Source of the DNA: Candidatus Hydrogenedentota bacterium
GTDB lineage: Bacteria > Hydrogenedentota > Hydrogenedentia > Hydrogenedentales > SLHB01
Direction of reading: 5' to 3'
DNA: 64,000 nt
Assembly (NCBI GenBank): GCA_045863295.1
Contig: BTWA01000011.1
Coordinates: 64,001-128,000, forward strand
The notes beneath the pieces are model-generated. The model did no database searches, had not been told where the DNA came from, and worked only from the letters and a program-made list of their open reading frames with translations. The translations under genes were made by a program, and so were the position numbers. Shown here piece after piece: positions 3,265 to 49,109 of this stretch. Position 1 is the stretch's first letter. Each line of letters begins with the position of its first letter.

Positions 3265-3278
3265 CGCGGTCCGCGCGA

Positions 3279-3968: not shown

Positions 3969-4151
3969 GAATACACCTCGCTTGTACTGCCTGAACGGGA
4001 TGCAACCAGGGCTGCGTGTCCGCCGCGAAACTGCCGCGACGGATTGACGGCCGTATGATAGCCCGAATGATTGACGATTAGAAATAGAAATGGGGCACGC
4101 CCTTGTTGCGTGCCCCAGACCGATAAAATCGAGCTTGAACCGTAACGCCCG

Positions 4152-5024: not shown

Positions 5025-5237
5025 GTTCGGACACTCCGGCAGATAGTGATTTTTTGTCCCGCGCATCCAAATGGTTGCAGGTTCGGACCAATCATTCAAC
5101 ACCAGACTCGGCGGTTCAGTTCCGGCTTAACGCGGCGAACTTCTGGTGAACCCTTGCCGGGCGCATGCCAGCGGACATGGCCTTTTGGTCAGTCTCGCGA
5201 TTACAATGAGCGGTCAAGGCAAGTGTCAGGCAAACCC

Positions 5238-6410
5238 ATGCGATCAATCTACTTAGATCATAGCTCGACCACGCCGGTGCGGCCCGAGGTCGTGGAGGCC
5301 ATGTTGCCATTCTGGACGGACCGGTTTGGCAATGCGGGATCGATACACGCATTCGGCCGATCGTGTCGCCGCGCCGTGGACGATGCCCGCGATCAGGTCG
5401 CGGCACTTATTGACGCGCATCCCAGGGACATTGTATTCACTTCCGGCGGCACCGAGTCGGATAATCTCGCGGTGCGGGGTATTCCGGGTGCGCGTCCGCC
5501 GGGCCGTCGCGGGATTCTGGTTTCGGCCGTAGAACATCATGCCGTATTACACGCGGCGGAGGCGGAGGCCAAACACGACGGCGGCGCAGTTCGCATCCTT
5601 CCAGTCAGCGCGGACGGCGTCGCCGACGTGGGCGCACTGGAAGCATTGGCGGACGACTCGCTGGCGTTGGTGTCGGTCATGCATGCGAACAACGAGACGG
5701 GTGTCATTCAACCCGTGGCGGCGGTTGCGGAATGGTGTTGTGCACGAGGCATTCCCTTTCACTGCGACGTGGTTCAGTCGATTGGCAAGATCCCTTTTAG
5801 TATTAAGGCACTGCCTGTTGCCATGCTTGCGATATCCGCGCACAAGCTGAACGGACCCAAGGGGGTTGGCGCGTGTTACATCCGCAAGGGGACGGAGTTC
5901 GTGCCGCAGATGAGCGGTGGATTTCAGGAACGCGAGCGGCGTGCGGGCACCGAGAACGTCGCGGGCATCGTCGGTTTTGGCAAGGCCTGCGAGATCGCGA
6001 AGCGGGACATGGACACTGTCGCCGCGCGGATGCGCCGTCTGCGGGACGCGTTGCAGTCGGGTATTCTGGAACGCATCCCGGAGTCGTTCGTGAACGGGGC
6101 GCAAGCGGAACGGCTGCCCCATCTGCTCAACATCCGGTTCGCGGGTGTCGAAGGCGAATCCGTCGTGCTTGCCCTGGATGTGGAAGGCGTAGCCGTGTCC
6201 AGCGGATCGACGTGTAGTTCGGGCGCGGTGGAGGCGTCGCATGTGCTGCTGGCGATGGGCCAGACTCATGCGGAGGCGCAAAGCGCCGTTCGCTTCAGTC
6301 TGGGCCACAGCACTACGGAGGCGGAAATTGACGAAGTGCTGGCTCTTCTGCCGGGCGTCATTGAGCGGATTCGCCGGGCGACGCCCCGTCCGACCTCAGC
6401 GCCGATTTAG
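5238..6410 (+). CDS. iscS: Cysteine desulfurase, group I (IscS/NifS type)
   Basis: IYLDHSSTTP, FTSGGTESDN, SAHKLNGPKG (PLP Lys), SSGSTCSS (catalytic Cys). Confidence 0.9.
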   Translation: MRSIYLDHSSTTPVRPEVVEAMLPFWTDRFGNAGSIHAFGRSCRRAVDDARDQVAALIDAHPRDIVFTSGGTESDNLAVRGIPGARPPGRRGILVSAVEHHAVLHAAEAEAKHDGGAVRILPVSADGVADVGALEALADDSLALVSVMHANNETGVIQPVAAVAEWCCARGIPFHCDVVQSIGKIPFSIKALPVAMLAISAHKLNGPKGVGACYIRKGTEFVPQMSGGFQERERRAGTENVAGIVGFGKACEIAKRDMDTVAARMRRLRDALQSGILERIPESFVNGAQAERLPHLLNIRFAGVEGESVVLALDVEGVAVSSGSTCSSGAVEASHVLLAMGQTHAEAQSAVRFSLGHSTTEAEIDEVLALLPGVIERIRRATPRPTSAPI

Positions 6411-6488
6411 CATTGGTTCCCTTGAAACGCATCGCGCGGCGAACCCGGGTTTCCGGATCCGCCGCGCGCATAAAATAATCGGTACGAA

Positions 6489-7874
6489 TTACAGGCTGAT
6501 TTCCCAGCCCTTGCGGTATTCCTTCGAGACAAACTGGTTTGCTTCGGGCACGTTGGTAATTTTCATGGCCTTGGCATCCCACTCGAATTTCTGGCCGGCT
6601 TCGCCGCAGCGCACGGCGAGATTGCCGAGCAACACGGTCTCCGAGAACGGGCCGGCGTAATCGAAATAGGATCCCGCCTGTTCCTGCTCGCCTTTGATCG
6701 CTGAAATCCAGTCGGTGTAGTGGCTGCCTTTCACGCGGGGCAGGAACGGCTCGGGGCGTTGATAGGCTTCGTTGACCGCATCGGGCAGGAGCCTCGAACC
6801 GTCGCCGTAGGTGCCGGTGGTCGCCATGCCTTTATCGCCGATGAACAGCGAGCCGTTGTTGCCTTCGCCAAGCTTGGTGTCGGCGGGCAGGCCTTCGGGC
6901 ATCGGCGGCATGAGACCGCCGTCGTACCAATACACGGCGACCGGATCCATCTTCTTGCCATCGGGCGCGACGCGTTCGGGAAAATCGAACTTCACGATGG
7001 ACTTGTTCGGCGCCATTTCGCTGGAACGGCCTTCCTGGGTCACCAACTCGAAGCTCGTGGGATAGCCCAACTGCAAGCTGTAGAAGGCAGGGTCCATGAT
7101 ATGGCAGGCCATGTCGCCGAGAGCGCCGCAACCGAAATCCCACCATCCGCGCCACACAAAGGGGCAATAGCACTTTTCGTTCGTGACGGGATGCTTGTCC
7201 ACATACGGACGTTCCGGCGCGGGTCCGAGCCAGAGGTCCCAATCCAACGTGTCGGGAATGGCATCGGTTTTGTCGGGGCGATCGAGACCTTGCGGCCAGA
7301 TGGGCCGGTTGGTCCAGCAGTGCACTTCGCGCACCTGGCCAATGGCTCCGCCCCAGATCATTTCGGTGAGTTGGCGCACGCCTTCGCCGGAACGGCCCTG
7401 GTTGCCCATCTGCGTTTTTACTTTGTACTTGCGGGCGGCCTCGGTGAGGAGGCGCGCTTCCCACACGGTGTGGGTGAGCGGTTTTTGCACGTAGACGTGA
7501 ATGCCGCGTTCCATGGCAGCCATGGCGGCGATCGCATGGAAATGATCGGGCGTCGAGATGGTTACCGCGTCAATGCTTTCCTTGTCGAGCATTTCGCGAA
7601 AGTCTTTGTACTGTTTGGCGTCGGGAAACTTGGCGAAGGTTTCCGCGGCGTTCGCCCAATCCACGTCGCACAACGCCACCACGTTTTCTTTCGAGCACCC
7701 GGCGATGTCGCTGCCGCCTTTGCCGCCGGAGCCGATGGCGGCAATGTTCAACTTGTCATTGGGACTGACTTTGCGCGGGCCGGCGGTCTTCTTGCCGCCT
7801 TTGGTGGCGCAGCCCGCCGCGAGCGTCGCGGCGCCCATGTAGATGAAGGTCCTGCGTGAGATGTACTTGCTCAT
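6489..7874 (-). CDS. Gfo/Idh/MocA oxidoreductase, probable Tat-exported lipoprotein
   Basis: SRRTF twin-arginine motif, LAAGC lipobox, TPDHFH, VQKP, GALGDMACH. Confidence 0.9.
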   Translation of the reverse strand: MSKYISRRTFIYMGAATLAAGCATKGGKKTAGPRKVSPNDKLNIAAIGSGGKGGSDIAGCSKENVVALCDVDWANAAETFAKFPDAKQYKDFREMLDKESIDAVTISTPDHFHAIAAMAAMERGIHVYVQKPLTHTVWEARLLTEAARKYKVKTQMGNQGRSGEGVRQLTEMIWGGAIGQVREVHCWTNRPIWPQGLDRPDKTDAIPDTLDWDLWLGPAPERPYVDKHPVTNEKCYCPFVWRGWWDFGCGALGDMACHIMDPAFYSLQLGYPTSFELVTQEGRSSEMAPNKSIVKFDFPERVAPDGKKMDPVAVYWYDGGLMPPMPEGLPADTKLGEGNNGSLFIGDKGMATTGTYGDGSRLLPDAVNEAYQRPEPFLPRVKGSHYTDWISAIKGEQEQAGSYFDYAGPFSETVLLGNLAVRCGEAGQKFEWDAKAMKITNVPEANQFVSKEYRKGWEISL

Positions 7875-8518
7875 GATGGCGTGATTCTCCCCGTTTCCTT
7901 TGGAAGTTGGTTCTCGAGGACCCCCCACAGGGACCAGGCGCCGAGCCCTGTTTTGCGCAATCCATGTAGAACTGCCGTATTGCGCCCCTGTCGAAGGTCC
8001 ACCGTCCAGACGCGAAAGTGAAAGGATAGGGAAAAAGGAAAACTCCTTCAAATTGAAATCCCGGGACGGCAGACGTTGCCTTGTACCTTTAAGCGCGGTG
8101 TGTTGCATTGGAGGGTGGGTGGATGCGTTGCGCGTTTCTTCTTGCCGGTTCAAGGGGGTTGGAGCGCATGGGCGCCGCACGATTCGGGGTCCTATGGTTG
8201 TTTGTACTGGGGTTGCCTGCCGGGGTGTGCCGGTACATTTTACAGGACCAAGTAATGCCCTTGGGGGCATTTCCCTTAGGAAATTGAAACAAGGGTATAT
8301 TCTTGTTTTTCTTGTTTTACTTGATCATTCCAGACAAGACAAATACTTCGAAGGGCTGCAAGGGTAAATCGAAAATCGGGTCGCGTGCGGGAAGGCATGG
8401 CCGCGGTGCGGCGTGTCATTCACCGTTTGCCATCGACAATTCGATGACCTCTCCTGTTTCCACCGTGGCGACGAAGTGGGACATCGTGCCTAATTGATCG
8501 GTTCTTCCCAAACGCTAT

Positions 8519-10163: not shown

Positions 10164-10732
10164 ATCCCGTGACGCATGGCCTTGCGGGGTGGGTTACGGC
10201 GAACATGGCTCCGTTGGAACGCCGGGAACGGGCGATTATCACGCTTGCGGGGGTTGCGCCGGATTTTGACGGCTTGGGCATGGTAGTGGACTTTGCGACG
10301 CGGCATTCGGCGACGCCCACGGAGTGGTGGGGCACGTATCACCATGTGCTTGGGCACAATCTGCTTTTTGGCGCGGTGTTGAGCGCGGTTGGGTTTGGGA
10401 TTGGCCGCAAGCGCCTGTTGACGGCGGCGCTCACGTTTTTCAGTTTTCATTTGCATATTCTCGGCGATATCGCGGGCGGGCGCGGGCCGGACGGGGATCA
10501 GTGGCCGATTCACTACTTGTGGCCATTTTCGAATGATCCGGCTTTGAGTTGGTCTGGCCAGTGGGCGCTGAACGCGTGGCCAAACTTCGCGGTGACGATT
10601 GCGTTGTTGGGTGTGACGTTTTACGCTGCCTGGCGCCTTGGGCGTTCACCGCTTGAGTTTGTTTCCTTGCGGGCCGACGCGGGCTTGTGCGCCACGCTTC
10701 GTCGGCGGTTTGGGGCGCCGGCCGGGCGGTAG
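10160..10732 (+). CDS. Membrane-bound metal-dependent hydrolase (YdjM-like)
   Basis: NPVTH, APDFD, YHHVLGHN, HLHILGD motifs; TTG start overlaps the metF stop (TTGA). Confidence 0.8.
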   Translation: MNPVTHGLAGWVTANMAPLERRERAIITLAGVAPDFDGLGMVVDFATRHSATPTEWWGTYHHVLGHNLLFGAVLSAVGFGIGRKRLLTAALTFFSFHLHILGDIAGGRGPDGDQWPIHYLWPFSNDPALSWSGQWALNAWPNFAVTIALLGVTFYAAWRLGRSPLEFVSLRADAGLCATLRRRFGAPAGR

Positions 10733-10803
10733 TGACCGCGAGGCGCTCGAAATTGCCTTGGTTTGCGCGGTATGATACGTGTTCAGAAGGAGACTGCTCC
10801 CGC

Positions 10804-12075
10804 ATGAGCCTTGTTGTTCAGCATGGCCGCGTCATTGACCCCGCCAACGGAATTGATGCTCACCTTGATGTTTTAATTGACGAAGGGAAGATTGCGCAGG
10901 TTGGAGCCGGTTTACGCGGCGAACGCGCAATCGATGCCACGGGCAGTGTCGTGTGCCCTGGATTTGTGGATCTGCACGCCCATTTTCGCGAGCCGGGTTT
11001 TGAATCCAAAGAGACGATTGCGTCAGGCGCACTGGCGGCGGCGCACGGCGGATTCACCTCGGTGGTGACGATGCCGGATACGAAGCCTCCGATCGACAAT
11101 GCGGGGATGCTGGAGTTCATCCACCGGCGGGCGCGGGAAACGGCGTGCGTTCGCATATGCCCGGCGGCGGCGGCGACGAAGGCTCGGCAGGGTCAGGAAA
11201 TGACGGAGATGGCGGAGCTCCGGGACGTGGGCGCGGTGGCGGTGACGGACGCGGATCAGGACATTGATTCGTCGTGGGTGTTGCGGCGCGTGCTGGAGTA
11301 CGCGCGAATGGTGGGACTTCCGTTTCTGGCGCACTGCGACGATGTGTCGCTGCAGGACAGCGGCCACATGAACGAAGGGTACAACTCGACGCGGCTCGGC
11401 ATTCCGGGCATGCCGGCGGCGATGCAGGAGGTGCGCATCGATCGGGCAATACGGCTTGCGCGCCTGACGGGGGCTCACGTGCACATTCAGTGCGTGTCGA
11501 CGGCGGAGGGCGTGCGGCTGGTGCGCGAGGCGAAGGCGGAAGGCCTTCGGGTTACGGCGGAGACTTCGCCGCACTATTTCATGTTGACGGACGCCGCGGT
11601 AGAGATTTACGGTCCGAACGCGAAGGTGAATCCGCCGTTGCGCACCGATGACGACGTTCAAGCGGTGAAGGACGGTTTGCGCGAAGGAATCATCGACGCG
11701 ATAGCCACGGATCACTCTCCGCATACGTTTACGGAAAAGGACGTGGAGTTTCAGTTGGCTCCGTTTGGGCTGATGGGCCTGGAGACCGCGCTGCCTTCGA
11801 CGTTGTCGGCGCTGGTGGAGCCGGGGCTGCTGGCATTGAGCGATGCGATTGCCCTGTTGACGTGCAAGCCTGCCAGGGTGATCGGTTTGAACGCGGGTAC
11901 GCTGGCCGTGGGCGCGGCGGCGGATGTGACTGTTTTCAAGGCCGACGCCGAATACGCGCTTCAGCCTTCTCTCATCAAGAGCCGTTCCAAGAACTCGCCG
12001 TATACGGGCACGACACTTCGCGGCAAGGTGACGCATACGATTTGCGATGGGGCCGTGGTGTACGAGGCGAAGTAG
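10804..12075 (+). CDS. pyrC: Dihydroorotase, multifunctional-complex type, with atypical active-site substitutions
   Basis: DLHAHFREPG, ETSPHY, KVNPPLR, IATDHSPH, KSRSKNSPY; AGGAG RBS. Confidence 0.85.
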   Translation: MSLVVQHGRVIDPANGIDAHLDVLIDEGKIAQVGAGLRGERAIDATGSVVCPGFVDLHAHFREPGFESKETIASGALAAAHGGFTSVVTMPDTKPPIDNAGMLEFIHRRARETACVRICPAAAATKARQGQEMTEMAELRDVGAVAVTDADQDIDSSWVLRRVLEYARMVGLPFLAHCDDVSLQDSGHMNEGYNSTRLGIPGMPAAMQEVRIDRAIRLARLTGAHVHIQCVSTAEGVRLVREAKAEGLRVTAETSPHYFMLTDAAVEIYGPNAKVNPPLRTDDDVQAVKDGLREGIIDAIATDHSPHTFTEKDVEFQLAPFGLMGLETALPSTLSALVEPGLLALSDAIALLTCKPARVIGLNAGTLAVGAAADVTVFKADAEYALQPSLIKSRSKNSPYTGTTLRGKVTHTICDGAVVYEAK

Positions 12076-12094
12076 GCGCGTTGGCGGGTTTTCT

Positions 12095-14596
12095 TCAGAA
12101 CGATTCGTCTTCCATGACGCGTATGCCGAGTATGCGCGACAATTTGAAATCTCTTACGCCGCCTTGTTTGTGGCAATAGCCGCTGAGCGTGGGTTGGGGG
12201 CACAGCAAGTCGACGGCAACGGGGTTGACTTTGCGCAGACTTGGGTTGGGTTCCCACACGGACTTGTATTGAATCAGGACAGGGACGCGGCGGCGTATCG
12301 CGTCTTCGAGAATCTCACCGATAATGCGCGGCGAATAGGACGGCAAGCTGACGTACGCTTCGGCGTCGTCCGTTTCCACATCGTCGGCGGTTTCGGCGAC
12401 TGCCTGTTGATCCGCGGCGGCACGTTGGGTTTCGACCCAGGGAAAACACCACCGATCGGGCGCTCCGTCGTCGAAAGAATCTTCCACTTTGTCGACAGGA
12501 ATGCCTTGTGACTTCAGCAGTTTCTTAAACTGCGCGAGGCGGCCTTGCTTGACCACCACGGTGTACAGGCCGAGTCGACCTTCGACGAAGTTGCCTGCGG
12601 CGGGCAGTTCCATGACGGCGTCGCAGGTCTCCGGTTCTTCAAAGCGGACGAGCGTTGCGGTTCCGGTACGCGCGGCGGCGACTTCGCCCGCGCGCGCACG
12701 AAGGGCGACGCGGAACCGGGCTGCCAGCGGGCCGATGACAATGGCGTCGAGGTTCGCGGCGTGGAGCCCCCAATCGACGCCTTTGTTGGAGCCGTTCTTC
12801 GCGAGCGTGACGCCGATGTCGCCGTTTGACTGCGCCACGACGTGGCCCAATTCCGAGATGCGTCGCTGAACAAACAGGTGGCGTCGCTCCCACGGGGCGC
12901 GCAGATGCAAGCCGTCTTCCTGGAGCAGGCACGGTTTTAACGGTTTGCGGTAATTGATGCGATGGGTCACATCAGGCACGGCGACATCGACCAGGACGAA
13001 TCGTTCGCCAATGACGCGCGCTCCGGGGTGATTTTGCAGAAACGCCTCGGCGTCGTTTGGGGTGCGGCATTCGACCACGTTGCACAAGGTGCGAATGGTG
13101 ACGGATTGGACCTTCCGTTCCCACGTGGCCAATTGATCGAGGACGTTTGCCGGAAGTGCGCGGGCGCTGTGGCGCGTGAGCAAATCCACAAACGTGTGGG
13201 CGGCGACGCCGGAGCGCACGCCCCTGTAGATGCTTTCCTGCGTGATTTTGTAGGTGCTCGCGGGACCGCCTCGCAAGCGTTCGCAAAACAGGTCGAGTTT
13301 CCGGCGCAATTCGGCGGAGCAGCGGTCGACGTAGGCAATGACTTCGAAGTCCGGTTGCACGACGACGGCGTCGTGGGTGCCTGCGCCGTTTTCCTCAGGT
13401 TTGGGTCCAACACCGAGGGCATACCGTCCGAGCGGGGTAATGCGGAAGCACTTGCCTTGCGCGGCCAGTTCGACTATGCCGAGTCGGCTGAACAGACTTT
13501 GAATTATCCATGAGAACAACCGCTTTTCGCGGGTTTGCCACGAGCGATCCTTCCATACGGGCGACGCGTCGTGCACATTGCAGTGAATGGCGAGCCAGCG
13601 CTCTTCCAGAAAGAGGACATTGGGATCGACGCGGCGAATCAGCTCGACGAACTGGTCGATGGAGAACCAAACGCCGGGGGTCTGCTCCGCAAGGATATTG
13701 GCCATGAGCACCCGGTGATAGGTGCGGCGCAATGCTCCGGGGCGCATGTGCTGATCGATGGCGTCGTATAGCTGCGTATAGAACAGCCGGAGATCGGGCA
13801 GGTCGTCGGCCGTGAGGTAGGCGTGAAAGAGTTCGCGGATGCGTTCACTTTCGCCGCGCTCGGCCCAGGCGGCGGCTTTTTCGGTGGTGTCGAGGCGGCC
13901 GTCGCGGGCTGCGATACATCCCATCCGGCAGGCCATGAGCAGGGCCATATCAAATGCTTCCGACGACACGTTGCCTTCCTTGGCAATTTCGATGGCGCGG
14001 GATCGGTCGGACTTATGGAGTTCGCCGGAAGCGGTCACGCGCGGCTCCAGGGCTTCGACAACGCGAAACGTTTCCAGCACAGTTGCCGTCGCGAGATCCG
14101 CGGCGGGGGAATCGGGATCCAGGGGGCCTTCCACGGGATCGAGGCGAATGCCCAGAGGGGCCGCGGGCGGCAACAGGTTTCGGACAGTATCCGGGACGAC
14201 CAAGGGGATGGCGCCGTTTCCGTCGATTTTTTCGCGGGAGAGTTGACCGAACGAGAAGGCTCCGGAATGGCCTTCCGGGCTGACGAGGACGAGGCCCTGT
14301 TTTGCGACGGCTTCCAAGGCTGGCTGGGTGTGTCCGTTGCCGAGGAGCCCGGGCACGCTGAGCACGTCTTGCGCCATCACGGCGGGCCGGCTTGCCACGA
14401 GGTGCATGACGCGTACGTCCGCGGGTGACAAGCGTTTAATGGCGTTTTCGACGTGGAGCGGGTCGGACAGGACCTTTTCCATGGCGCGAATGCGGTTGGG
14501 CTTGCTGGAAACCGCAAGTTGCCAGTAGTCGCACATGGTTGCGAGGGCTTCGTTGGTGTAGCCCCGCAAACATTCTTTTACGCTGAAGCTATTCAC
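12095..14596 (-). CDS. XPB-associated Helicase_C_3 domain protein with C-terminal WYL domain
   Basis: RITPLGR..VVQPDFEVIA..YKITQESIYRGVRSG..LPANVLDQLATW; WYL-like AIRRRVPVLIQY..RKVNP..GYCH..RDFKLSRI. Confidence 0.85.
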   Translation of the reverse strand: MNSFSVKECLRGYTNEALATMCDYWQLAVSSKPNRIRAMEKVLSDPLHVENAIKRLSPADVRVMHLVASRPAVMAQDVLSVPGLLGNGHTQPALEAVAKQGLVLVSPEGHSGAFSFGQLSREKIDGNGAIPLVVPDTVRNLLPPAAPLGIRLDPVEGPLDPDSPAADLATATVLETFRVVEALEPRVTASGELHKSDRSRAIEIAKEGNVSSEAFDMALLMACRMGCIAARDGRLDTTEKAAAWAERGESERIRELFHAYLTADDLPDLRLFYTQLYDAIDQHMRPGALRRTYHRVLMANILAEQTPGVWFSIDQFVELIRRVDPNVLFLEERWLAIHCNVHDASPVWKDRSWQTREKRLFSWIIQSLFSRLGIVELAAQGKCFRITPLGRYALGVGPKPEENGAGTHDAVVVQPDFEVIAYVDRCSAELRRKLDLFCERLRGGPASTYKITQESIYRGVRSGVAAHTFVDLLTRHSARALPANVLDQLATWERKVQSVTIRTLCNVVECRTPNDAEAFLQNHPGARVIGERFVLVDVAVPDVTHRINYRKPLKPCLLQEDGLHLRAPWERRHLFVQRRISELGHVVAQSNGDIGVTLAKNGSNKGVDWGLHAANLDAIVIGPLAARFRVALRARAGEVAAARTGTATLVRFEEPETCDAVMELPAAGNFVEGRLGLYTVVVKQGRLAQFKKLLKSQGIPVDKVEDSFDDGAPDRWCFPWVETQRAAADQQAVAETADDVETDDAEAYVSLPSYSPRIIGEILEDAIRRRVPVLIQYKSVWEPNPSLRKVNPVAVDLLCPQPTLSGYCHKQGGVRDFKLSRILGIRVMEDESF

Positions 14597-40127: not shown

Positions 40128-40229
40128 TTCTCCTGATCTGTCTGCGTTGGCGCGTTGTCGATTTGTGTCCATATCCGCCGCCTGTCATACTATGGACAGG
40201 CTGTTTCCTTCCTCATGGAGCCATCACGA

Positions 40230-41483
40230 ATGAAGAAACGCATTGCGTTCGCGTTTCTCGCGCTTGTTGCCGGTTTCTTTTTGTTCCGCGAACTCAAGGG
40301 CGAGTTTATTGACTGGTATGCGGACAACGTATTTGTCCGCAAGACGGCCTATCCTTCCTCCGAGCAGCCGGATCAAATCACGCTTACGTGGAGCGACGAT
40401 CCGCAGACCACACAAACGATCAACTGGCGAACGAGTCCGGCCGTCGATACCGGCACGGTTGAGTTTCGAACCGTTGGAGACGGCGATGGGCCGGTTCAGA
40501 CCGTTGTTGCGACGAAGGCCATCCTTGAAGATGCGTTGCTGGAAAACGATCCGTTGAATCACCGTTTTACGGCGCGCCTTACGGGATTGACGCCGGATAC
40601 GCCATACGAATACCGGGTGGGTAACGGGAATACCGACGGGTGGAGCGACTGGGTGGAATTCCGGACGGCGCCGGGCCCCGACAAGCCATTTTCGTTTGTA
40701 TACATGGGCGATCCGCAGAAGGGGTTGGGATTTTGGGGCGGTTTGGTGCAGAAATCATTTGAGCGTTGCCCCCAGTCCGCTTTTTATGTCATTGCCGGCG
40801 ATTTGATCAACAGCGGGAACTTTCGCAACGAATGGGATGCCTTGTTTCGCGGGGGCACGGGCGTGTTCGATCGTAGGGCGCTTGTGCCTGCGCCTGGCAA
40901 CCACGATTATGACAATCAAAATCAGTTGCGGTTGTATCTGAGTGTGTTTGGCCTGCCGGAGAATGGGCCTGAGGAATTGCCCAAGGAGCACGCGTACAGT
41001 TTCACCTACGGCAACGCGCTGTTCGTAGTGCTGGATTCGAATCAGCCGCCTGGTCTGCAGACGTCATGGTTGGAGAAGCAGCTCGCGGAATCCAAGGCGA
41101 CGTGGAAATTCGCTGTTTACCACCACCCGGCTTATCCATCGGCTCCGCACCGGGCGAACGAGGATGTGAAGAAGCTCTGGGGCGATCTTTTTGACAAGTA
41201 CCATGTAGACATGGCGCTGCAAGGTCACGATCACGCGTATTTGCGGACCTATCCAATGAAAGGGGGCAAGCGCGCGGCGTCCGCGGCGGAAGGCACGTAT
41301 TACATGGTAGCGGTGTCGGGCACGAAGTTTTACGAGCAGATCTACCGGGAGTATTCGGAGGTCGCTTTTCCGCAAGTATCCACCTATCAGGTCATTGACA
41401 TTTCCACCCACCCTGACAAGCTTACTTATCGCGCATACGACATCGACGGCATTGTAAAAGACGAACTGATCATCGAGAAATAA
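40230..41483 (+). CDS. Purple acid phosphatase-like metallophosphoesterase with FN3-type N-domain
   Basis: GD, GDL, GNHD, HHP, GHDH motifs; N-terminal anchor. Confidence 0.9.
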   Translation: MKKRIAFAFLALVAGFFLFRELKGEFIDWYADNVFVRKTAYPSSEQPDQITLTWSDDPQTTQTINWRTSPAVDTGTVEFRTVGDGDGPVQTVVATKAILEDALLENDPLNHRFTARLTGLTPDTPYEYRVGNGNTDGWSDWVEFRTAPGPDKPFSFVYMGDPQKGLGFWGGLVQKSFERCPQSAFYVIAGDLINSGNFRNEWDALFRGGTGVFDRRALVPAPGNHDYDNQNQLRLYLSVFGLPENGPEELPKEHAYSFTYGNALFVVLDSNQPPGLQTSWLEKQLAESKATWKFAVYHHPAYPSAPHRANEDVKKLWGDLFDKYHVDMALQGHDHAYLRTYPMKGGKRAASAAEGTYYMVAVSGTKFYEQIYREYSEVAFPQVSTYQVIDISTHPDKLTYRAYDIDGIVKDELIIEK

Positions 41484-41488
41484 CGCGA

Positions 41489-42976
41489 TTATTCGTTGCC
41501 GGACGGCGGCACTTTGGGTTGTACGCCCGGAAATGGGCCTTCGGGCCATGCCCAGATGGGAAATCGCGTGTTGGCGCTCTTCATGGTTTCCTTGCCGTTC
41601 ACAAAACCCGCCGCAACGAGCAACACGACATAGGAGATTGCCGAAGCCAGGACCCACTTGTATGCCTTGAAGGGCTTTAGCTGTTCGGCGTTCTCGGGCG
41701 GATAAGGGCTCGGCCCGTCTTTGAATAATTGTGCAATTACATGGACAGTCATCAAGATAAACAGAATCCAAAATACCGTGTGCATGTTTATATAGTTTGG
41801 AACGGGCGGGCGAAAGAAATACAGCGCGTTCGCATTCTGGTATAGCACCATTGTGAGGGACAACCAGACTACCGGGAACCAAGGCCACCTGCGGGCGTCC
41901 TTGCCGTTGACAATGCTCCATAGAATGGAGCCGATCGTGGCCGCGACACACAGTGCGATGATGCCGTTGGCTGTCTTTTGGCCGAGCGCACCGGCATTGC
42001 CATAGCCCATTTCCTCGAGGGCCGAGGTCCACTCGGTGATCTTTTCTGAAAACGGGGTGCGCGTAACGGCGTGCAAAATAGGCACCGCGGCCATGGCATA
42101 GAGCGCGCCAAGATTGGCGATGCGGGCGAAGGCTGGGCCGGATGGCGGTTCTGGGAAACGTTGGCCGAGCATTCCGTACGTGTAGACAAATCCCGCGATG
42201 AGGCCTACCGACACCTCCATTGTGTTCCACGTGTTGATGTTGAAAGGTCCGAGTTGAGTGCCATCGGCGAATTTCCAGGACCATGTGATGAGATTTGTGT
42301 TGATGTTGTCGACCATGCGGCCGATTGACATGCCCATTCCGAAGCCCGTATAGCCCAGGATTGCAGACCGGAAGCCGGTCTGTTTACCGCGTGCCCACAG
42401 CCACACGAGCAGAGCCCAGGCACCTCCCGTATAGGCAATGGAGGCGTTTGAGCGCCAAGGGTTGATGTGGAATCCGCACAGCTTCACGACGAGTATGTAG
42501 AGGAAGGTTCCGCCAGCCAGAACGGCGATGGCCGATTCCACCCATTCGATTCGCGTGGTGCGCTTGTGTTCGAGCAGAAGCCCGGCGGCCGCGCACCCGA
42601 AGACGCCCCATGCGCCGCCTTGCAAGAACAAGGTGAAGAAGCCGTAGGCGTAGTTGATGAACGTATCGGATTTGCCGTATCCGTGCAACACGCCATAGCT
42701 CATATGGCCGCCCGCGCCGATACCCAGACCGGTCACAATCGCGAGTACGGGCATCCAGCGGTACATGGCGGTCTGGCCGGTGACGTAGCCGAACGCGAAC
42801 GCCAGTATAACGCCGGGATACATGGCTCCAATGAGGTGGCCGAAGTCGCCGCGAATACCCCATGCCAGACCGACAGCGAGTGCAACGAACACCGAGCGTT
42901 CGATTCGATCCCATTGGCTAATGCGAGTGCCTTGACGCGGCATACTGGCGGCGGTTTGCGTGGTGTCTTGACTCAT
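41489..42976 (-). CDS. Polytopic membrane protein of unknown function (~495 aa)
   Basis: About 12-14 hydrophobic segments; WGIRGDFGH and GGHMSYG polar motifs; ATGA overlap with the upstream GTPase. Confidence 0.8.
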   Translation of the reverse strand: MSQDTTQTAASMPRQGTRISQWDRIERSVFVALAVGLAWGIRGDFGHLIGAMYPGVILAFAFGYVTGQTAMYRWMPVLAIVTGLGIGAGGHMSYGVLHGYGKSDTFINYAYGFFTLFLQGGAWGVFGCAAAGLLLEHKRTTRIEWVESAIAVLAGGTFLYILVVKLCGFHINPWRSNASIAYTGGAWALLVWLWARGKQTGFRSAILGYTGFGMGMSIGRMVDNINTNLITWSWKFADGTQLGPFNINTWNTMEVSVGLIAGFVYTYGMLGQRFPEPPSGPAFARIANLGALYAMAAVPILHAVTRTPFSEKITEWTSALEEMGYGNAGALGQKTANGIIALCVAATIGSILWSIVNGKDARRWPWFPVVWLSLTMVLYQNANALYFFRPPVPNYINMHTVFWILFILMTVHVIAQLFKDGPSPYPPENAEQLKPFKAYKWVLASAISYVVLLVAAGFVNGKETMKSANTRFPIWAWPEGPFPGVQPKVPPSGNE

Positions 42977-44625
42977 GGAATAGACTTCCGCCCTTCCTGA
43001 GACAGCATGCCGTGCAGATATTGCACGCGATCGATTTCGGCGATGACTTCCCGGGCGGCTTCCTGCTCGTCGCGAAAGGCGAGGCCCCCCTCCCCCAATG
43101 CAATTCGCAGGTCGGTGGAGGCCTTGGCGCGCGCGCGCCATGCGGCGAGGCGGACGGCGATGGACAGGGCCAGCATTTCCAGAGCGATTAGAATAAGCAG
43201 GACCAGCATGGCGTGATAGCCGTCGTCCTTCGAGAACGTGATTCCCTGGAAGAACGCGTATACCACGTGATACGCGATGTAGCCAAGCAACGTGAGTGGC
43301 GCGGCATCCATAAGAAGTGTGACGGGCCAACTGGCGAGGACGCGCGCACGCGCCACTATCCGGTCGCGGGCGGGGCCGCGCAGCAGTGCGGTCAAGCGTT
43401 GTCGAACGGCTTCGCTAAATCGCTTGAAACTGTCCTGTTCGCTTTCGGTCGCAAAGTGAGCTTTTGACATTTCCAGCACGGCTTCTCCCCGGGCGGACCG
43501 AAATACGGCGTGAACGGCCTCGGAGGCGACGTCGATGTCTTCGTTGAACAGGTCGTTTTCGGTGAGGAGGGCGGCGGCTTGCCTTCCCGCACCCAACGGC
43601 ATGGCCTTGGGAAGCCAGCCGGCGACGCGCGCGGGCAGTGTGCGGACGGCTTCGAGGATGCGAAACAGCGTACCCACGATGCCTTTGGATCGGATGCTTG
43701 TTTCGCGGCCCAGCGCAAACGTCCAGAGATGCGATTCGGAGAACAGACGTCTCCGGAGAATTCCATAGGTTTCCTTGACGACGGTTTGGTCAATGGTGTG
43801 CAGTTTGGCCAGCAGGGTTTCCACTTCGGGCCGTCGGGCGGCCACGCGTTCGTTCAGCGTGGAAATGGTTTTTGCGAGCAGTCCCGCGGTGTTGGAAGAT
43901 TTGATTCGGCGTATGCGTTCGCGCGTGAGTTCCTCTCGCAGAAACGATTCCAGGCGGGCGAAGTCGAACGCATCGGGGCCGGGCATGGCTCCGCGCAGTT
44001 TGCTTTCAAAGGCGCGCAGGGCGCAGACCCGGAAGCAGGCATCCACGCGAAAGCCCTGTGCAGCCAACCGATTCATCCAATGATCGCGAATGCTTTCCGC
44101 GCCCGCGTCGGCCTTTGTCTCAACGCAGACGAGGGTCCTTTCGCCCTGCAAGGGCCTCAGCAGGGACCATGTGGCTTCATCCATGTATTTTTCGGGGCTC
44201 CCGCACATGAGGATAAGGTCGCATTGGGCTAAAGCATCGATGACGGCGCTGCGGTGCTCCTTAACGATGGTGTCAGAGTCGGGCGTATCAATGAGTACGA
44301 GATTTTCCAGGGCCGAGCCGGATGCCATTCGCCAGCCCGGAAAGTCGAGTTTGGCACCGGGCGGATGATAGACCGTCGGGACGGCGGTGCATGGGCGGAA
44401 TTCAGAAACGTCTGCAAGCCGGTCACCGGCAATTGCATTGAGCAGTGTGGATTTTCCCACGCCGGAACCGCCGACCAACGCGACGACAAGCACATCGTTG
44501 AGCCGTGCTTCGCGTTCGCGCAATTCCCGCAGGCGGTCACGCAACAGGGCGGCTTCGGCTTTGAGTGGAGCCCATGGCCCGTCGTAGCGGGCGATGGTTT
44601 CGAGTTCGATAAGAATATCGTTCAT
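42973..44625 (-). CDS. Dynamin-like/MMR_HSR1-type GTPase with C-terminal TM pair
   Basis: GGSGVGKS, RPCT, DTPD, TKAD; helical stalk; two hydrophobic helices. Confidence 0.85.
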   Translation of the reverse strand: MNDILIELETIARYDGPWAPLKAEAALLRDRLRELREREARLNDVLVVALVGGSGVGKSTLLNAIAGDRLADVSEFRPCTAVPTVYHPPGAKLDFPGWRMASGSALENLVLIDTPDSDTIVKEHRSAVIDALAQCDLILMCGSPEKYMDEATWSLLRPLQGERTLVCVETKADAGAESIRDHWMNRLAAQGFRVDACFRVCALRAFESKLRGAMPGPDAFDFARLESFLREELTRERIRRIKSSNTAGLLAKTISTLNERVAARRPEVETLLAKLHTIDQTVVKETYGILRRRLFSESHLWTFALGRETSIRSKGIVGTLFRILEAVRTLPARVAGWLPKAMPLGAGRQAAALLTENDLFNEDIDVASEAVHAVFRSARGEAVLEMSKAHFATESEQDSFKRFSEAVRQRLTALLRGPARDRIVARARVLASWPVTLLMDAAPLTLLGYIAYHVVYAFFQGITFSKDDGYHAMLVLLILIALEMLALSIAVRLAAWRARAKASTDLRIALGEGGLAFRDEQEAAREVIAEIDRVQYLHGMLSQEGRKSIP

Positions 44626-46439
44626 GTTTCCAGGCATTGTTCCTGCCACTTTCGCAAGTTTGCGACGGATTCTCCATCCAGAATGTTGAGATACGCTTGA
44701 AGGGATGCCAATGCGGGGTTGACGACGTGCGTTTGAAGCGCCTGGCGCAAAGCCTCTTGTTGCTCTTTTTTCCAAGGCGAAAGGAAGTCGAACAGGGCAT
44801 CGCCAAACTGGTATTCGATGACGCGGGCGAGGAACTGCTCCGCCAGGGGGCCCGCCACGGCCACAGACTCCGCGACGCCGATACCGCCGGTGTGCATAGC
44901 CAACGGCACGGCGATGGCCGTGGGAGCGATGGCCAATACGGCATCCAAGCTTTCCAACACGCGGCGGGTGCCTTTGTGATCATTCCACCATGTATCCAAT
45001 GTGCGGAAGGCGTGTTCGTGAAATGCTTCCGACACATTTTCGGTTTGCAGGACCTGACGGCGGATCTCGTCCAGACTTCTTTCAATTCGTATTTCGCCGA
45101 TGTGGGTGCGCACCAGATGCCCGGCGGGTTCGCGGAGATTCTCGCTTGACTCGATAATGCTGGCGAGAAATTCGCGCGCGATACGGTCTACGGCTTGCGC
45201 ATGCGCGGCGCGCAATTCCTCTTCGTTGGGTGCCGCCGCTTCTGCTTCCAGGGAGGCTCGGCGGAGCAGGGCGTTGCGCACGGAACGGCCGACCGCGCCC
45301 GCCCCTTTGGCCACGGCTTTGCCTGTTGAACCTATCCATCTCCGGACCGGACCGCGCTTTGACTGCACGAACTCGTGAAACAGTCCGCCAACGCGGGCAC
45401 CGGGCATGGGATCGTACTGGCGCGCGTAGTCCGCCGCGCGCAGATCAAACTCTTCCCGGGCGCGGCGGAGTATCTGAGCAACATCGTCGAGGCCTTCGAG
45501 AAATTCGGCGGCCTGTTCGCCGAAGCGAGTAACTGATCCGCGGTACACCCGTTCCTTAATCGAGGGTATGTCCAACGAACGCAGGTGTACGCGCAGGTCT
45601 TCGCCACCGTCGATGGATTCAATGGGTCGTTGCGGATCTTTGGGCAGGTCAAACGCATGTGGGAGCACGAAGCACGGCGCATCGATGCCGATGTCGGTCA
45701 GGAATTCATCCAATTGTTTTCGGGCGGTGTTGAAGCCGTTTTCCGGATCGGCTTTGTTCATAAGCGGAATGAGGATTCGCCCTGAAGCGTGCGCGCGGCG
45801 AAAGAACGCCACCACCCGATCGTCCTTGTATTTTTCGCCCGTCAGCACGGCCACAATGACGTCGCCGGCGGCGCCGATAGCGTCGGCCACCTGCCAATTC
45901 GCTTTGTCGATCGAATCGACGTCGGGCGTGTCCAGCACGATCATATTTCCGGGCAGGTTGTCGGTTTCCCGCACGTACATGGCGTCTGGCCGGGAGTCAT
46001 GGGAGACGACGGCCTCGGGATCGTCGAGGTGCATTGCTTTGAACTCCGGCACCAATCTGCCGTCGAGGCATTCGGCAATTCGCGAGGGCGAGCCCGTCAG
46101 GAGCGGTCTGCAAGTGGCGGCGGCGGTGGCTTTGACGGGACTGACGACTTCACCTATCAGAAGGTTGAAGACGGTGGACTTGCCGGTATTTGTGCCGCCG
46201 GCAACCGCCACAACCAGGCATCCTTCCCCTTCCAGATGGGGTTTGAGCTTATTCCGGAGAAGGTTTAGCCACGGCGCCGCGGCGCCGAAGATCGCCTCGT
46301 ACAAAGCAGGGTCGCCTGCGAGCGCATCCTGCAGCCGGCGTATTTCGGCGTCGAAGGCGGCGAGCACGTCGCCCAACGACTTTAGATTCGATCCGGATGG
46401 GGCCATTCGAACTGCAAACCTTCCCAAGTACTCGCGCAT
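44622..46439 (-). CDS. Dynamin-like/MMR_HSR1-type GTPase with hydrophobic paddle
   Basis: GGTNTGKS, AATC, DTPD, NKAD; helical C-half; VLAIAPTAIAVPLAMHTGGIGVA; start uncertain. Confidence 0.85.
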   Translation of the reverse strand: MREYLGRFAVRMAPSGSNLKSLGDVLAAFDAEIRRLQDALAGDPALYEAIFGAAAPWLNLLRNKLKPHLEGEGCLVVAVAGGTNTGKSTVFNLLIGEVVSPVKATAAATCRPLLTGSPSRIAECLDGRLVPEFKAMHLDDPEAVVSHDSRPDAMYVRETDNLPGNMIVLDTPDVDSIDKANWQVADAIGAAGDVIVAVLTGEKYKDDRVVAFFRRAHASGRILIPLMNKADPENGFNTARKQLDEFLTDIGIDAPCFVLPHAFDLPKDPQRPIESIDGGEDLRVHLRSLDIPSIKERVYRGSVTRFGEQAAEFLEGLDDVAQILRRAREEFDLRAADYARQYDPMPGARVGGLFHEFVQSKRGPVRRWIGSTGKAVAKGAGAVGRSVRNALLRRASLEAEAAAPNEEELRAAHAQAVDRIAREFLASIIESSENLREPAGHLVRTHIGEIRIERSLDEIRRQVLQTENVSEAFHEHAFRTLDTWWNDHKGTRRVLESLDAVLAIAPTAIAVPLAMHTGGIGVAESVAVAGPLAEQFLARVIEYQFGDALFDFLSPWKKEQQEALRQALQTHVVNPALASLQAYLNILDGESVANLRKWQEQCLET

Positions 46440-46601
46440 GGTTACACCGCCACGCTAATGTATCTTTCCAAAGACAATCAAGATTGGCATTCGCGGGTCC
46501 ATCGGATAGACTGTTTGCGGTTTACAGGCTGCACTTTATCCGCATTGGGGAATTCTATGCATTTCCGAGCCGAGGCCGTCACCGGCAGGTCGGGCCGCCG
46601 C

Positions 46602-49109
46602 ATGATTCGGCACATTGTGCTGATCGTGTGTTTCTTTCCGGCATTGGGCTGCGATCTGGTGCTTGGCCACTGGGACCGGCAGGCATTGCCCATGGTCAAG
46701 GGTTCGTTGCGCGTACCGGGCATTCACGGCGAAGTCGAGGTGCTGCGCGACGGCCACGGCGTTCCCCATATCTATGCCGGGTCTCAGCGGGATCTCTTTT
46801 TTGCTCAGGGGTTTGTTCAGGCGCAGGACCGGTTCTGGCAAATGGACCTGTTCAGGCGTTACGGGCGTGGCACGATTGGCGAACTGGTGGGCCGCCGGGA
46901 GGAAATTGTAACCCAGGACATCTACTACCGAACAATTGGCTTATACCGTTCCGCCGAAGAGGAGGTACGCCTGCTTGACGCTGACACGCGAGCGATGTTT
47001 GAGGCCTTCGCCGAAGGGGTTAACGCGTATCTTCGGGGCAAACTTCCGTGCGACCTTTCGGCGGAGTACAGCGCGTTGTCGGCGATTGGGTTGCGTTACA
47101 AGATTGACCCGTGGACGCCTGCCGATTCATTGGTATGGGGGAAGGTCGTTGCGGAACTGCTCAGCTCGCCAAGTTATGACGAAGGATCCATGGCGCAGGT
47201 GCAGGCGGCCATCAGTCCGGAAATGTTCGCGGAGTGGTTGCCTCCGTTTCCGGATGGGGTGAAACCGACCATTGTTCTTCCAGAGGATTTGCCTTCCGCC
47301 AAGGCGGGCATGGGCAGGCGAAGCCAGAACTACGCGGATTCCGCGGCAGTGACACGCATTCTTCCAGACCGATCGCGGTGGTGGTTTCAGCGCGGCGACG
47401 GCATGGGGAGCAACAACTGGATGGTATCCGGCGAGCGGACGGCTTCGGGCCGGCCGCTGTTTGCCAATGATCCGCACCTTGCGCCCACGATGATTCCGGG
47501 ACTGTTCTACGAAGTCGGGTTGCATTGCAGCAATGCCACGGAGCCGATGCATTTGGCGGGCTTTGCGTTGGCCACTTCTCCGGGTGTTTTCATCGGACAT
47601 AACGAGTATATGGCCTGGGGGTTCACTGCATCGGGTGCCGATGTACACGACACGTACCGGATTACGGTCAACCCCGCGAATCCGCTGGAATACTGGTGGG
47701 ATGGCTCGTGGCGGCCGTTTCGCGTGCGGGAGGAGACCATCCGGTTTGCCGACGGATCGCCGCCGCTTGTGGTTCAGGTTCGCGAAACGCATTTTGGCCC
47801 GATCGTGAACGAGCTTCATGTAACGCCCAACGCAACCGGCACTGCCTTCAACAATGTAGCGCCGCATGCCATCCGGTACACCGTGCTGGAACCGGGCCGC
47901 CCGGCGACCGCGCTGAAACGGCTTTACAGCGCAAAAAACTGGGTTGAATTTGGCGAGGCAACGGCCTTGTGGGATTATCCCGCGATCAACATTGGATACG
48001 CCGACATACACGGCAATATCGGCTATCGCCTGTTGGGCAAGATTCCAATTCGAGCGGGCCATCATAGCGGGCTGACGCCGGTATCGGGTTCGGATTCCGC
48101 TATGCAGTGGCTGGGATTCATTCCGTTTGACCATCTACCCAAGGTGTTGAATCCACAGGGCGGCTTGATTGTGAGTGCAAACCAGGTGCCTGCGCCGCAA
48201 TCGTATTTCGACGGTTTGGCCGACCAATTGGGTGCTGGTCCAAACTATCATTTTGTGCCTGTGGACAATTTTGGCTATCGGGGAGGCAGGATAATGGACT
48301 TGCTGAAGGCCAATACGGCCCACACCCCAGACAGCCTCAGAGCCATACAAAGTGATGTGGTTCTGCCGGGGGTGGAAGAAGTCATCCCGTATTTGCGGGA
48401 GATCGACATGGGAAGCCCGGAGTTGAACACGGCCCGGGACTGGTTTGTGGGATGGGACGGCGAATACACGCTGGAAACGTCGCAAGGATTGCTTTATCCC
48501 TATTTCCTGACAGCATTGTTTCACGGCATCTACGACGATCAGGCCGGCGACTGGCCGCCGCTGGTGGAAATCGGGTATTGGTCCGTTTATTTGTTGCTTG
48601 CGGATCCAGGCAATGTCTGGTGGGACGACACCGCGACGGAACCGGTGGAAACCCGCGATGACATACTGAGGCGGTCGTTTGCTCAAGGACTTGCGGGCGC
48701 GGCTAGTTGGTACGGGCCGGATCGCGGTGCGTGGCGCTGGGGAGACCGACACTATATCCGTTTTACTCACATCCCACTCGGTTACGTCGGCGTTGCGCCC
48801 GTGGAGGACTTTTTCAATCGCGGGCCGCACGAGATTCGCGGGACCAGCGGAACGATCAACATGGCGTCGTGGTCGTTTGTAGACGGCAGCTTCGAGGCGA
48901 ACTTTATTCCGGTGATCCGGCTCATATGCGACGTTGGCAATTGGGACAACACACGTGCGTTGAACTGTACCGGACAGAGCGGGCATCCGGGATCGCCTCA
49001 TTACGGTGATCAGATACAAGACTGGATCGATGTGAATTTGCACATACAGCCATGGAACCGCCGCGCGGTGGAAGCGGCGTCCGTAAACCGGCTGGTGTTG
49101 CACCCTTGA
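46602..49109 (+). CDS. Penicillin acylase family (S45) Ntn hydrolase, exported
   Basis: RDGHGVPHIYA, AQDRFWQMD, GSNNW nucleophile, NDPHL, GQSGHP. Confidence 0.93.
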   Translation: MIRHIVLIVCFFPALGCDLVLGHWDRQALPMVKGSLRVPGIHGEVEVLRDGHGVPHIYAGSQRDLFFAQGFVQAQDRFWQMDLFRRYGRGTIGELVGRREEIVTQDIYYRTIGLYRSAEEEVRLLDADTRAMFEAFAEGVNAYLRGKLPCDLSAEYSALSAIGLRYKIDPWTPADSLVWGKVVAELLSSPSYDEGSMAQVQAAISPEMFAEWLPPFPDGVKPTIVLPEDLPSAKAGMGRRSQNYADSAAVTRILPDRSRWWFQRGDGMGSNNWMVSGERTASGRPLFANDPHLAPTMIPGLFYEVGLHCSNATEPMHLAGFALATSPGVFIGHNEYMAWGFTASGADVHDTYRITVNPANPLEYWWDGSWRPFRVREETIRFADGSPPLVVQVRETHFGPIVNELHVTPNATGTAFNNVAPHAIRYTVLEPGRPATALKRLYSAKNWVEFGEATALWDYPAINIGYADIHGNIGYRLLGKIPIRAGHHSGLTPVSGSDSAMQWLGFIPFDHLPKVLNPQGGLIVSANQVPAPQSYFDGLADQLGAGPNYHFVPVDNFGYRGGRIMDLLKANTAHTPDSLRAIQSDVVLPGVEEVIPYLREIDMGSPELNTARDWFVGWDGEYTLETSQGLLYPYFLTALFHGIYDDQAGDWPPLVEIGYWSVYLLLADPGNVWWDDTATEPVETRDDILRRSFAQGLAGAASWYGPDRGAWRWGDRHYIRFTHIPLGYVGVAPVEDFFNRGPHEIRGTSGTINMASWSFVDGSFEANFIPVIRLICDVGNWDNTRALNCTGQSGHPGSPHYGDQIQDWIDVNLHIQPWNRRAVEAASVNRLVLHP

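Follow-up and report, generated by a model that had tools for sequence, protein, structure and literature searches.

In a 64,000-nucleotide stretch of the genome of a Candidatus Hydrogenedentota bacterium (contig BTWA01000011.1 of assembly GCA_045863295.1, positions 64,001 to 128,000; hereafter the window, with positions counted from its first letter), two adjacent minus-strand genes, here named G1 and G2, are best explained as encoding a heterotypic pair of dynamin-like proteins (DLPs) of the BDLP/mitofusin class, an interpretation to which a probability of roughly 0.75 is given. They would constitute a translationally coupled two-gene unit, vertically inherited in Hydrogenedentota and with relatives in several phyla, and would belong to an uncharacterised subfamily in which the G3 motif of the GTPase domain reads DxPD. 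A third co-oriented gene, M3, follows G2 and encodes a polytopic membrane protein that, within the same interpretation, is not a conserved part of the system.

G1, the upstream GTPase (44622-46439), G2, the downstream GTPase carrying a putative hydrophobic helical hairpin anchor (42973-44625, from the ATG at 44625), and M3, of an unnamed family (41489-42976, from the ATG at 42976), are 605, 550 and 495 amino acids (aa) long, respectively, according to the list of open reading frames (ORFs) and their translations. The G1 stop overlaps the G2 start in an exact ATGA (44622-44625), and so does the G2 stop with the M3 start (42973-42976), the latter with a GGAAG 8 nt upstream of the ATG. Both joins are read directly in the sequence and are those described in a first-pass annotation of the locus, made from the letters alone, which had proposed a three-component module of two dynamin-like GTPases and a membrane partner acting in membrane remodelling or defence.

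The AlphaFold models of both GTPases were explored for the structural traits of dynamins, with predicted local distance difference test (pLDDT) values and predicted template modelling (pTM) scores of 85.8 and 0.74 for G2 and of 80.4 and 0.71 for G1. On comparison with the PDB by Foldseek, all matches listed belonged to the dynamin superfamily, for G1 and G2 alike. The best one was in both cases BDLP (2j69_A), with E-values of 2.1e-10 for G2 and 5.7e-10 for G1, IniA (6j72) matched G2 at 1.5e-9, and the lower rows were occupied by IniA, Drp1/Dnm1, MxA, OPA1/Mgm1, SynDLP, mitofusins and the Campylobacter jejuni DLP pair. VIA placed MFN1 first for G2 (5yew_A; Z 21.1, root-mean-square deviation (rmsd) 4.0, 294 residues aligned) and Fzo1 first for G1 (9kfd_B; Z 21.8, rmsd 4.9, 322 residues aligned), these top matches being mitofusin-1 and Fzo1 'minimal' constructs formed by the G domain and the first helical bundle. 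The alignments with MFN1 5yew and Fzo1 9kfd/9kfe cover residues 1-550 of G2 and 1-605 of G1 (283-322 residues aligned, rmsd 3.5-5.6), and their running from the first to the last residue indicates that the N- and C-terminal helices would close the neck bundle, as in BDLP and mitofusin. The predicted trunk would be formed in G2 by long helices at 235-460 plus a hairpin at 433-511, and in G1 by helices at 291-544. The first-pass annotation had named models lacking a dynamin neck and trunk as the observation that would speak against a dynamin-like identity; both models contain the neck and a probable trunk.

Sequence profiles concur with the structural comparison. Searched against PDB sequences, the G2 profile found BDLP (2j68) as its best match (E 3.5e-6), while positions 305-490 of the G1 profile matched the stalk of dynamin-1 (E 7e-5). 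By hhalign, G1 and G2 have paralogous G domains (E 4e-17), and no likeness was detected between their helical halves. The Pfam family Dynamin_N (PF00350) scored 31.3 bits for G2, above its cut-off of 27, and 22.3 bits for G1, below it. Foldseek, VIA and the profile searches thus agree on BDLP, mitofusin and dynamin matches, in line with the dynamin-like identity first proposed for both proteins and, judging from the models, G1 and G2 belong by fold to the BDLP/mitofusin class of the dynamin superfamily. NCBIfam returned only matches far below threshold, to Era, Der, DynA (NF052648, 13.3 bits against a cut-off of 1600) and CrfC (NF007368, 20.7 bits against 1146). Because DynA, CrfC and Leo models all stay below threshold, and because the G3 motif is DTPD and not DxxG, the two proteins fall outside every named dynamin family and are treated as a separate subfamily within this fold.

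Public records label these proteins as '50S ribosome-binding GTPase', 'GTPase domain-containing protein', 'EcfA2' or 'EngB', names that would make them ribosome-associated or other small TRAFAC GTPases. Pfam MMR_HSR1 matches of 26.8 and 34.1 bits for the two proteins and Era/Der-type matches over the P-loop go in the same direction. Nonetheless, such an identity is extremely unlikely, since these matches are limited to the P-loop and the core of the G domain, while the proteins are 550-605 aa long with helical stalks of ~300 residues and membrane segments. Moreover, VIA gives Era, Der and EF-Tu Z values of only 13-16, by the G domain alone, against 21-22 along the whole chain for MFN1 and Fzo1. 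Public annotation as ribosome GTPases or EngB would need correction.

The nucleotide-binding motifs were then located and their conservation evaluated in alignments of 18 G1 and 19 G2 orthologues drawn from related genomes. In G1, the P-loop GGTNTGKS is encoded at 46176-46199 (minus strand, as for all motifs that follow), with G81, G82, T83, N84, G86 and K87 invariant; in G2, the P-loop GGSGVGKS lies at 44449-44472, with G52, G53, G55, G57, K58 and S59 invariant. The switch-I threonine, T109 in G1 and T80 in G2, is invariant in both sets. The G4 motif is NKAD in G1 (45747-45758; N228 invariant, K229 conserved in at least 90%) and TKAD in G2 (44107-44118; T170 invariant). The G3 motif reads DTPD in both proteins, with Asp in the place usually taken by Gly. 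It is encoded at 45921-45932 in G1, where D170, P172, D173, D175 and S176 are invariant, and at 44278-44289 in G2, where D113, T114, P115, D116 and D118 are. All of these elements had been listed in the first-pass annotation. The canonical G3 motif of GTPases is DxxG, and a test for canonical motifs accordingly recovered the P-loop, switch-I Thr and G4 of both proteins, with DxxG found in neither. In all 18 G1 and 19 G2 orthologues the G3 Asp pair is further followed by x-D-[ST], giving the extended signature DxPDxD[ST].

The DxPD motif is also found outside the phylum. A profile search of 1.84 billion representatives yielded 5933 proteins at E <=1e-3, 2612 at E <=1e-10 and 258 at E <=1e-30; it was run without a motif filter, and the 2612 may include other GTPases. 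The G3 motif was tallied in those of the best 150 profile matches that align across the P-loop, 133 in number. DxPD was present in 130 of these 133 (DTPD in 40, DCPD in 38, DAPD in 33, DPPD in 13 and others in 6), the rest being one DCPA and two gaps; Gly occurred in none. D.PD.D was also present in the upstream partners of loci outside the phylum that had been chosen without regard to the motif. The near-invariance of DxPD in both partners therefore defines a subfamily with a non-canonical switch II. The G4 motif is variable across the wider family, with THAD, NKWD and NRAD among its forms. A literature search confined to the DTPD motif in GTPases found no description of a DxPD GTPase subfamily.

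A large branch with Asp for the switch-II glycine in both partners breaks a rule of GTPase chemistry, and the motifs make it probable that nucleotide is hydrolysed in a way that departs in its details from canonical dynamins. A further-reaching proposal can be put forward only tentatively, the odds being against it: the DxPDxD[ST] proteins might be a mechanistically distinct dynamin branch, in which the G3 Asp and the second Asp would be directly involved in catalysis or would bind a metal or cation, perhaps at the interface where the two G domains of the pair meet. In that case only the heterodimer would hydrolyse nucleotide. The variable G4 motif may mean that some members use a nucleotide other than GTP, and in this lineage M3 might additionally be a membrane client of G2. 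Once worked out, the mode of hydrolysis and the anchoring through one partner would widen the view of dynamin action. If, on the other hand, Streptomyces DynA/DynB share the DxPD motif, the subfamily already has characterised members and G1 and G2 are merely new ones.

Conservation of the pair was evaluated in 41 genomes of the same order, this one included. G2 was found in 34 of them and G1 in 36. Of 40 genera, spread over 13 families of the order, 33-35 have the pair, mostly in single copy and at 31-57% identity. In 33 other genomes both genes were detected at strong E-values; they share contig and strand, with G1 upstream, in 32 and are directly adjacent in 30, while genome G010 has them on two contigs. 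With starts picked by script, 14 of 16 loci holding both genes show an overlap of the two coding regions. Synteny between genera does not extend to the surroundings of the pair: at E <=1e-10, none of eight flanking proteins of the window was found within the fetched flanks of 20 loci of relatives. The pair appears to be inherited vertically in Hydrogenedentota. As side observations, two genomes show ~1.3-1.4 kb between the G1 and G2 orthologues (G007, locus L067, C79 7612-8892; G022, C548 640-2024), and the gap in G007 holds a same-strand ORF of ~253 aa.

Outside the phylum, relatives with 22-42% identity were found in Planctomycetota (Gemmataceae and others), Methylococcales, Desulfobacterota, Chloroflexota (Limnocylindria), Fimbriimonadaceae, Fermentibacteria and Acidimicrobiia. 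Among 80 loci from other phyla, 44 hold two side-by-side same-strand profile matches, 30 a single match, often at a contig end, and 6 none by the ORF caller used. The conserved tandem pair is therefore borne out both by its adjacency within the order and by its tandem arrangement in 44 of the 80 loci of other phyla. Separately, ORFs of 1064-1190 aa at three loci (L079, L087 and L138) match the G1 or G2 profile; they could be fused two-headed forms like Bacillus subtilis DynA, or crude ORF-calling artefacts.

This near-universal, single-copy and vertical distribution argues for a role in envelope housekeeping, stress or division and against mobile defence. It bears directly on the defence role raised in the first-pass annotation, namely that the locus is an anti-phage system of dynamin type, similar to Eleos/LeoABC or acting like B. 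subtilis DynA, which is reported as protective against phage (PMC12998192). PADLOC did return matches, with G2 reaching LeoA at E 9.7e-6 (22.9 bits) and LeoBC at 2.4e-4, and G1 reaching LeoBC at 2.7e-4. These are marginal and in part confined to the P-loop: for the two GTPase genes, the only ones at the locus, the LeoA model gave 13.8 and 22.9 bits and the LeoBC model 18.2 and 18.4 bits (E 9.7e-6 to 5.7e-3), below what an Eleos/LeoABC assignment takes. In addition, no third Leo-like gene is present, M3 having no PADLOC match, the flanks are ordinary metabolism (penicillin amidase, purple acid phosphatase, FadL, GlmS), and the presence of the pair in the order is housekeeping-like and not patchy. 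A defence function is consequently judged very unlikely, and that part of the earlier proposal is not retained.

M3 behaves differently from the pair. As described before, it is a 495-aa multi-pass protein with ~12 hydrophobic segments that bears the motifs WGIRGDFGH (residues 39-47; 42836-42862) and GGHMSYG (residues 89-95; 42692-42712); in nine sequences W39, I41, R42, G43, G46 and H47 of the former, which is also found in paralogues, and G89, G90, S93, Y94 and G95 of the latter are invariant. Eight full-length orthologues occur in related genomes at 34-56% identity. In seven genomes (G012, G014, G015, G019, G021, G032 and G039) the orthologue is remote from the pair, being either on another contig or 0.1-5.6 Mb away, with ~120 kb between them in G015 and ~5.6 Mb in G039, and the genome with the closest orthologue (G004, 56% identity) has no G1-G2 pair. 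Around M3 relatives, G1/G2-like sequence was found in none of 13 and none of 11 loci, with flanks of 0.7-8 kb as set by contig ends, and no G1/G2-like ORF was found within 4 kb of M3 in 38 metagenome loci. Conversely, none of the 80 pair loci from other phyla contains an M3 relative. What follows G2 also changes among relatives: of 18 loci, 10 have an opposite-strand gene there and 8 a same-strand ORF of 94-929 aa, none of these 8 being M3-like. Since homologues of the membrane protein that are unlinked to the GTPase pair in other genomes had been named beforehand as evidence against a three-component module, the module must be given up as a conserved unit.

M3 belongs instead to a family with members scattered over this genome, which holds at least six paralogues with unrelated neighbours (C18:83583-85211, C51:20537-22570, C59:17247-19853, C9:330-2198, C3:204165-205595 and C15:10926-12893). 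The C18 paralogue is full-length and 38% identical to M3, the others being longer proteins of 476-868 aa. They share the N-terminal block WG[IY]RG..GHE.GAM.PG and the motif GG.[MI]SY, many invariant polar residues (R, H, E, N, Q) are placed within the hydrophobic segments of the family, and the longer paralogues (~620-870 aa) carry an extra C-terminal soluble-looking domain. No family name for M3 was found in Pfam, NCBIfam or PADLOC, nor in Pfam for a 677-aa paralogue. In the ESM Atlas its relatives appear only in unnamed clusters from Planctomycetota, Bacteroidota and Verrucomicrobiota, with no named fold above a template modelling score (TM-score) of 0.25 and a DUF3464 label on 16-20% of two clusters. 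The neighbours of M3 relatives elsewhere vary, genes of glycan catabolism being recurrent (sulfatases, GH92, SusD, a 3-keto-disaccharide hydrolase, a GH123-like protein and a mannitol dehydrogenase with ABC permeases), a weak hint that M3 could be a transporter or membrane enzyme tied to glycan uptake or processing. The C18 paralogue (locus L020, G000:C18; neighbours 2386-8427 and 10306-12880) is flanked on one side by GH92 and a 1212-aa protein with a beta-galactosidase trimerisation domain, and on the other by an M19 dipeptidase and a DUF1501 protein.

Several points weigh against the reading of G1 and G2 as a heterotypic DxPD dynamin pair. Regarding the fold, Foldseek TM-scores are low for both models (0.2-0.37), the Dynamin_N matches span only ~37 residues around the P-loop, and VIA aligned 439 residues of BDLP 2j69_A with the G2 model at an rmsd of 37. 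The low TM-scores and the large rmsd to full-length BDLP are attributed to a different hinge conformation, which makes the comparison of the modelled trunk with BDLP less firm than that of the neck. Regarding function, GTP hydrolysis by G1 and G2 is unproven because the canonical G3 glycine is missing, and the nucleotide used by family members is uncertain because distant members depart from a strict G4 motif. A putative physical interaction between G1 and G2 is suggested by gene order and precedent. Regarding M3, the exact ATGA overlap together with a plausible ribosome-binding site implies that it is co-expressed in this genome: its co-transcription with G2 is very likely, it may be translationally coupled to G2, and a lineage-specific functional tie between M3 and the pair may exist, although none of the present results speaks for one. 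Such partnerships have a precedent in Streptomyces, where DynB binds the polytopic SepX through transmembrane (TM) segments (PMC8748795).

These latter points are also those on which a three-component module could be defended, M3 being then a dedicated membrane partner, recruited in this lineage, on which the hairpin of G2 docks. Besides the overlap with its Shine-Dalgarno-like GGAAG and the DynB-SepX binding, the module finds some support in the lineage-specific third gene of the C. jejuni dlp1/2 operon (PMC6104087) and in the content of G and C at third codon positions of M3 (0.706, against 0.67-0.77 for its neighbours), by which M3 is native in composition and no fresh foreign insert. Nonetheless, the 0 of 80 and 0 of 38 counts, the seven remote orthologues, the G004 genome that keeps M3 without the pair and the paralogues in unrelated surroundings render it improbable. 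The preferred view of M3 is that of an unrelated gene which came to lie downstream of the pair in this lineage, a passenger outside the conserved system. An exact start/stop overlap is thus no evidence of a functional module.

As for how the pair might act, the first-pass annotation had noted long helical C-terminal halves and distal hydrophobic segments in both GTPases, and both are present, the former in the models. In G2, residues 433-500 (43126-43329) form a hydrophobic two-helix hairpin with a Kyte-Doolittle peak of 2.81 and modelled helices at 433-460 and 466-511, a putative transmembrane or deeply inserted anchor. In G1, a hydrophobic Ala/Gly/Pro-rich segment at residues 497-545 (44805-44951), with low pLDDT over 506-529 and a weaker hydropathy than the G2 hairpin, may be a paddle that inserts into the membrane from the tip of the stalk; it precedes the return helices, which would agree with the layout of BDLP. 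The overall arrangement of G1 would then be N-terminal helices, GTPase domain, long helical stalk, Ala/Gly-rich hydrophobic paddle and C-terminal return helices. In the mechanism proposed, G2 would sit in the cytoplasmic membrane through its hairpin and G1, soluble or peripheral, would be recruited to it, with its softer paddle dipping into the bilayer. Nucleotide binding would drive association of G1 with G2 through the G domains, the stalks or both, and the resulting assembly would tether, bend, fuse or seal membrane, in the service of cell division, repair under stress or maintenance of the envelope, by analogy with other DLP pairs of bacteria.

Within the preferred reading of a dynamin-like pair, a more specific version that competes with general membrane repair is an accessory function in cell division, on the model of Streptomyces DynA/DynB, where a soluble DLP and one with two TM segments stabilise the division ring. 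The two systems share their architecture, with an upstream protein without a strong TM segment and a downstream one with a two-helix hydrophobic hairpin. Against it, no division genes stand beside the pair, none of the results bears on division in this phylum, and the likeness noted to DynA/DynB is one of architecture. A homologue search started from an Acidimicrobiaceae member gave no link to Streptomyces DynA/DynB, its best 120 matches being only from Acidimicrobiia and Chloroflexota or unnamed. A division role of this kind therefore appears rather unlikely.

Concerning the limits of the genes, G1 orthologues start ~17-20 residues downstream of the 46439 start, and an in-frame ATG at codon 12 (46406) is preceded by GGGAAGG; the true G1 protein may thus be the one of 594 aa that begins there. 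The ORF lister places the starts of G2 and M3 at upstream TTG codons, for which the ATG codons are preferred because they fit the orthologues better; M3 orthologues align only from about residue 18. On the G1 side, a penicillin amidase gene (46458-49109) is encoded on the strand opposite to G1, and on the M3 side a purple acid phosphatase gene (40155-41483), on the strand opposite to M3, is followed by FadL, GlmS and SurE. With opposite-strand genes of apparently ordinary metabolism on either side, the three genes form an isolated transcription unit. A scan of 41000-46900 gave one promoter-like site, against 2.0 in shuffled sequences, and ten terminator-like sites, against 6.2, and found no promoter- or terminator-like site dividing G2 from M3. 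No more than 18 bp separate the start of G1 (46439, minus strand) from that of the penicillin amidase ORF, which runs divergently from 46458 on the plus strand, and a promoter-like site at 46484-46512 falls within the first codons of the latter; the real start of G1, of the amidase ORF or of both probably lies further inside.

Comparison with known systems places the closest structural precedents in Nostoc punctiforme BDLP (2J68/2J69) and mitofusin/Fzo1, which present the same layout as G1 and G2: N-terminal helices, G domain, neck and trunk, a hydrophobic tip and a return helix. Sequence identity to them is, however, only 11-16%. BDLP is longer (695 aa, versus 550-605 aa), the G3 motif of G1 and G2 is DxPD and not DxxG, and the tip of G2 is a long two-helix hydrophobic hairpin in contrast to a short paddle. 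In genetic organisation, the closest likeness is to the operon-paired DLPs, including C. jejuni DLP1/DLP2, Nostoc BDLP1/2, IniA/IniC, LeoA/LeoBC and the fused B. subtilis DynA, which likewise have two paralogous DLP genes placed side by side (PMC6104087 and PMC4159319). The same papers indicate that most bacterial DLPs are encoded as such pairs and are thought to be hetero-oligomeric. C. jejuni DLP1/DLP2 (5OWV/5OXF) and IniA (6j72) are also fold-level matches to G1 and G2, and the C. jejuni operon contains a lineage-specific third gene too (PMC6104087). These pairs differ from G1/G2 in their G3 motif, with the DynA, CrfC and Leo models below threshold.

Streptomyces DynA/DynB resemble G1/G2 by description, one partner being without a strong TM segment, the other standing on two TM helices and both acting jointly (PMC8748795). 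SepX, with three TM segments and apparently not encoded beside dynB, is unrelated to M3 and its ~12 segments. Judged by these analogies, G1 and G2 would work like the known operon-paired bacterial DLPs, which are poorly understood membrane machines of which only a handful have been studied; the DxPD branch itself is unstudied. The three-gene module is not real as a conserved unit, and the significance of the locus rests on the DxPD subfamily that its two GTPases represent and not on the membrane partner.

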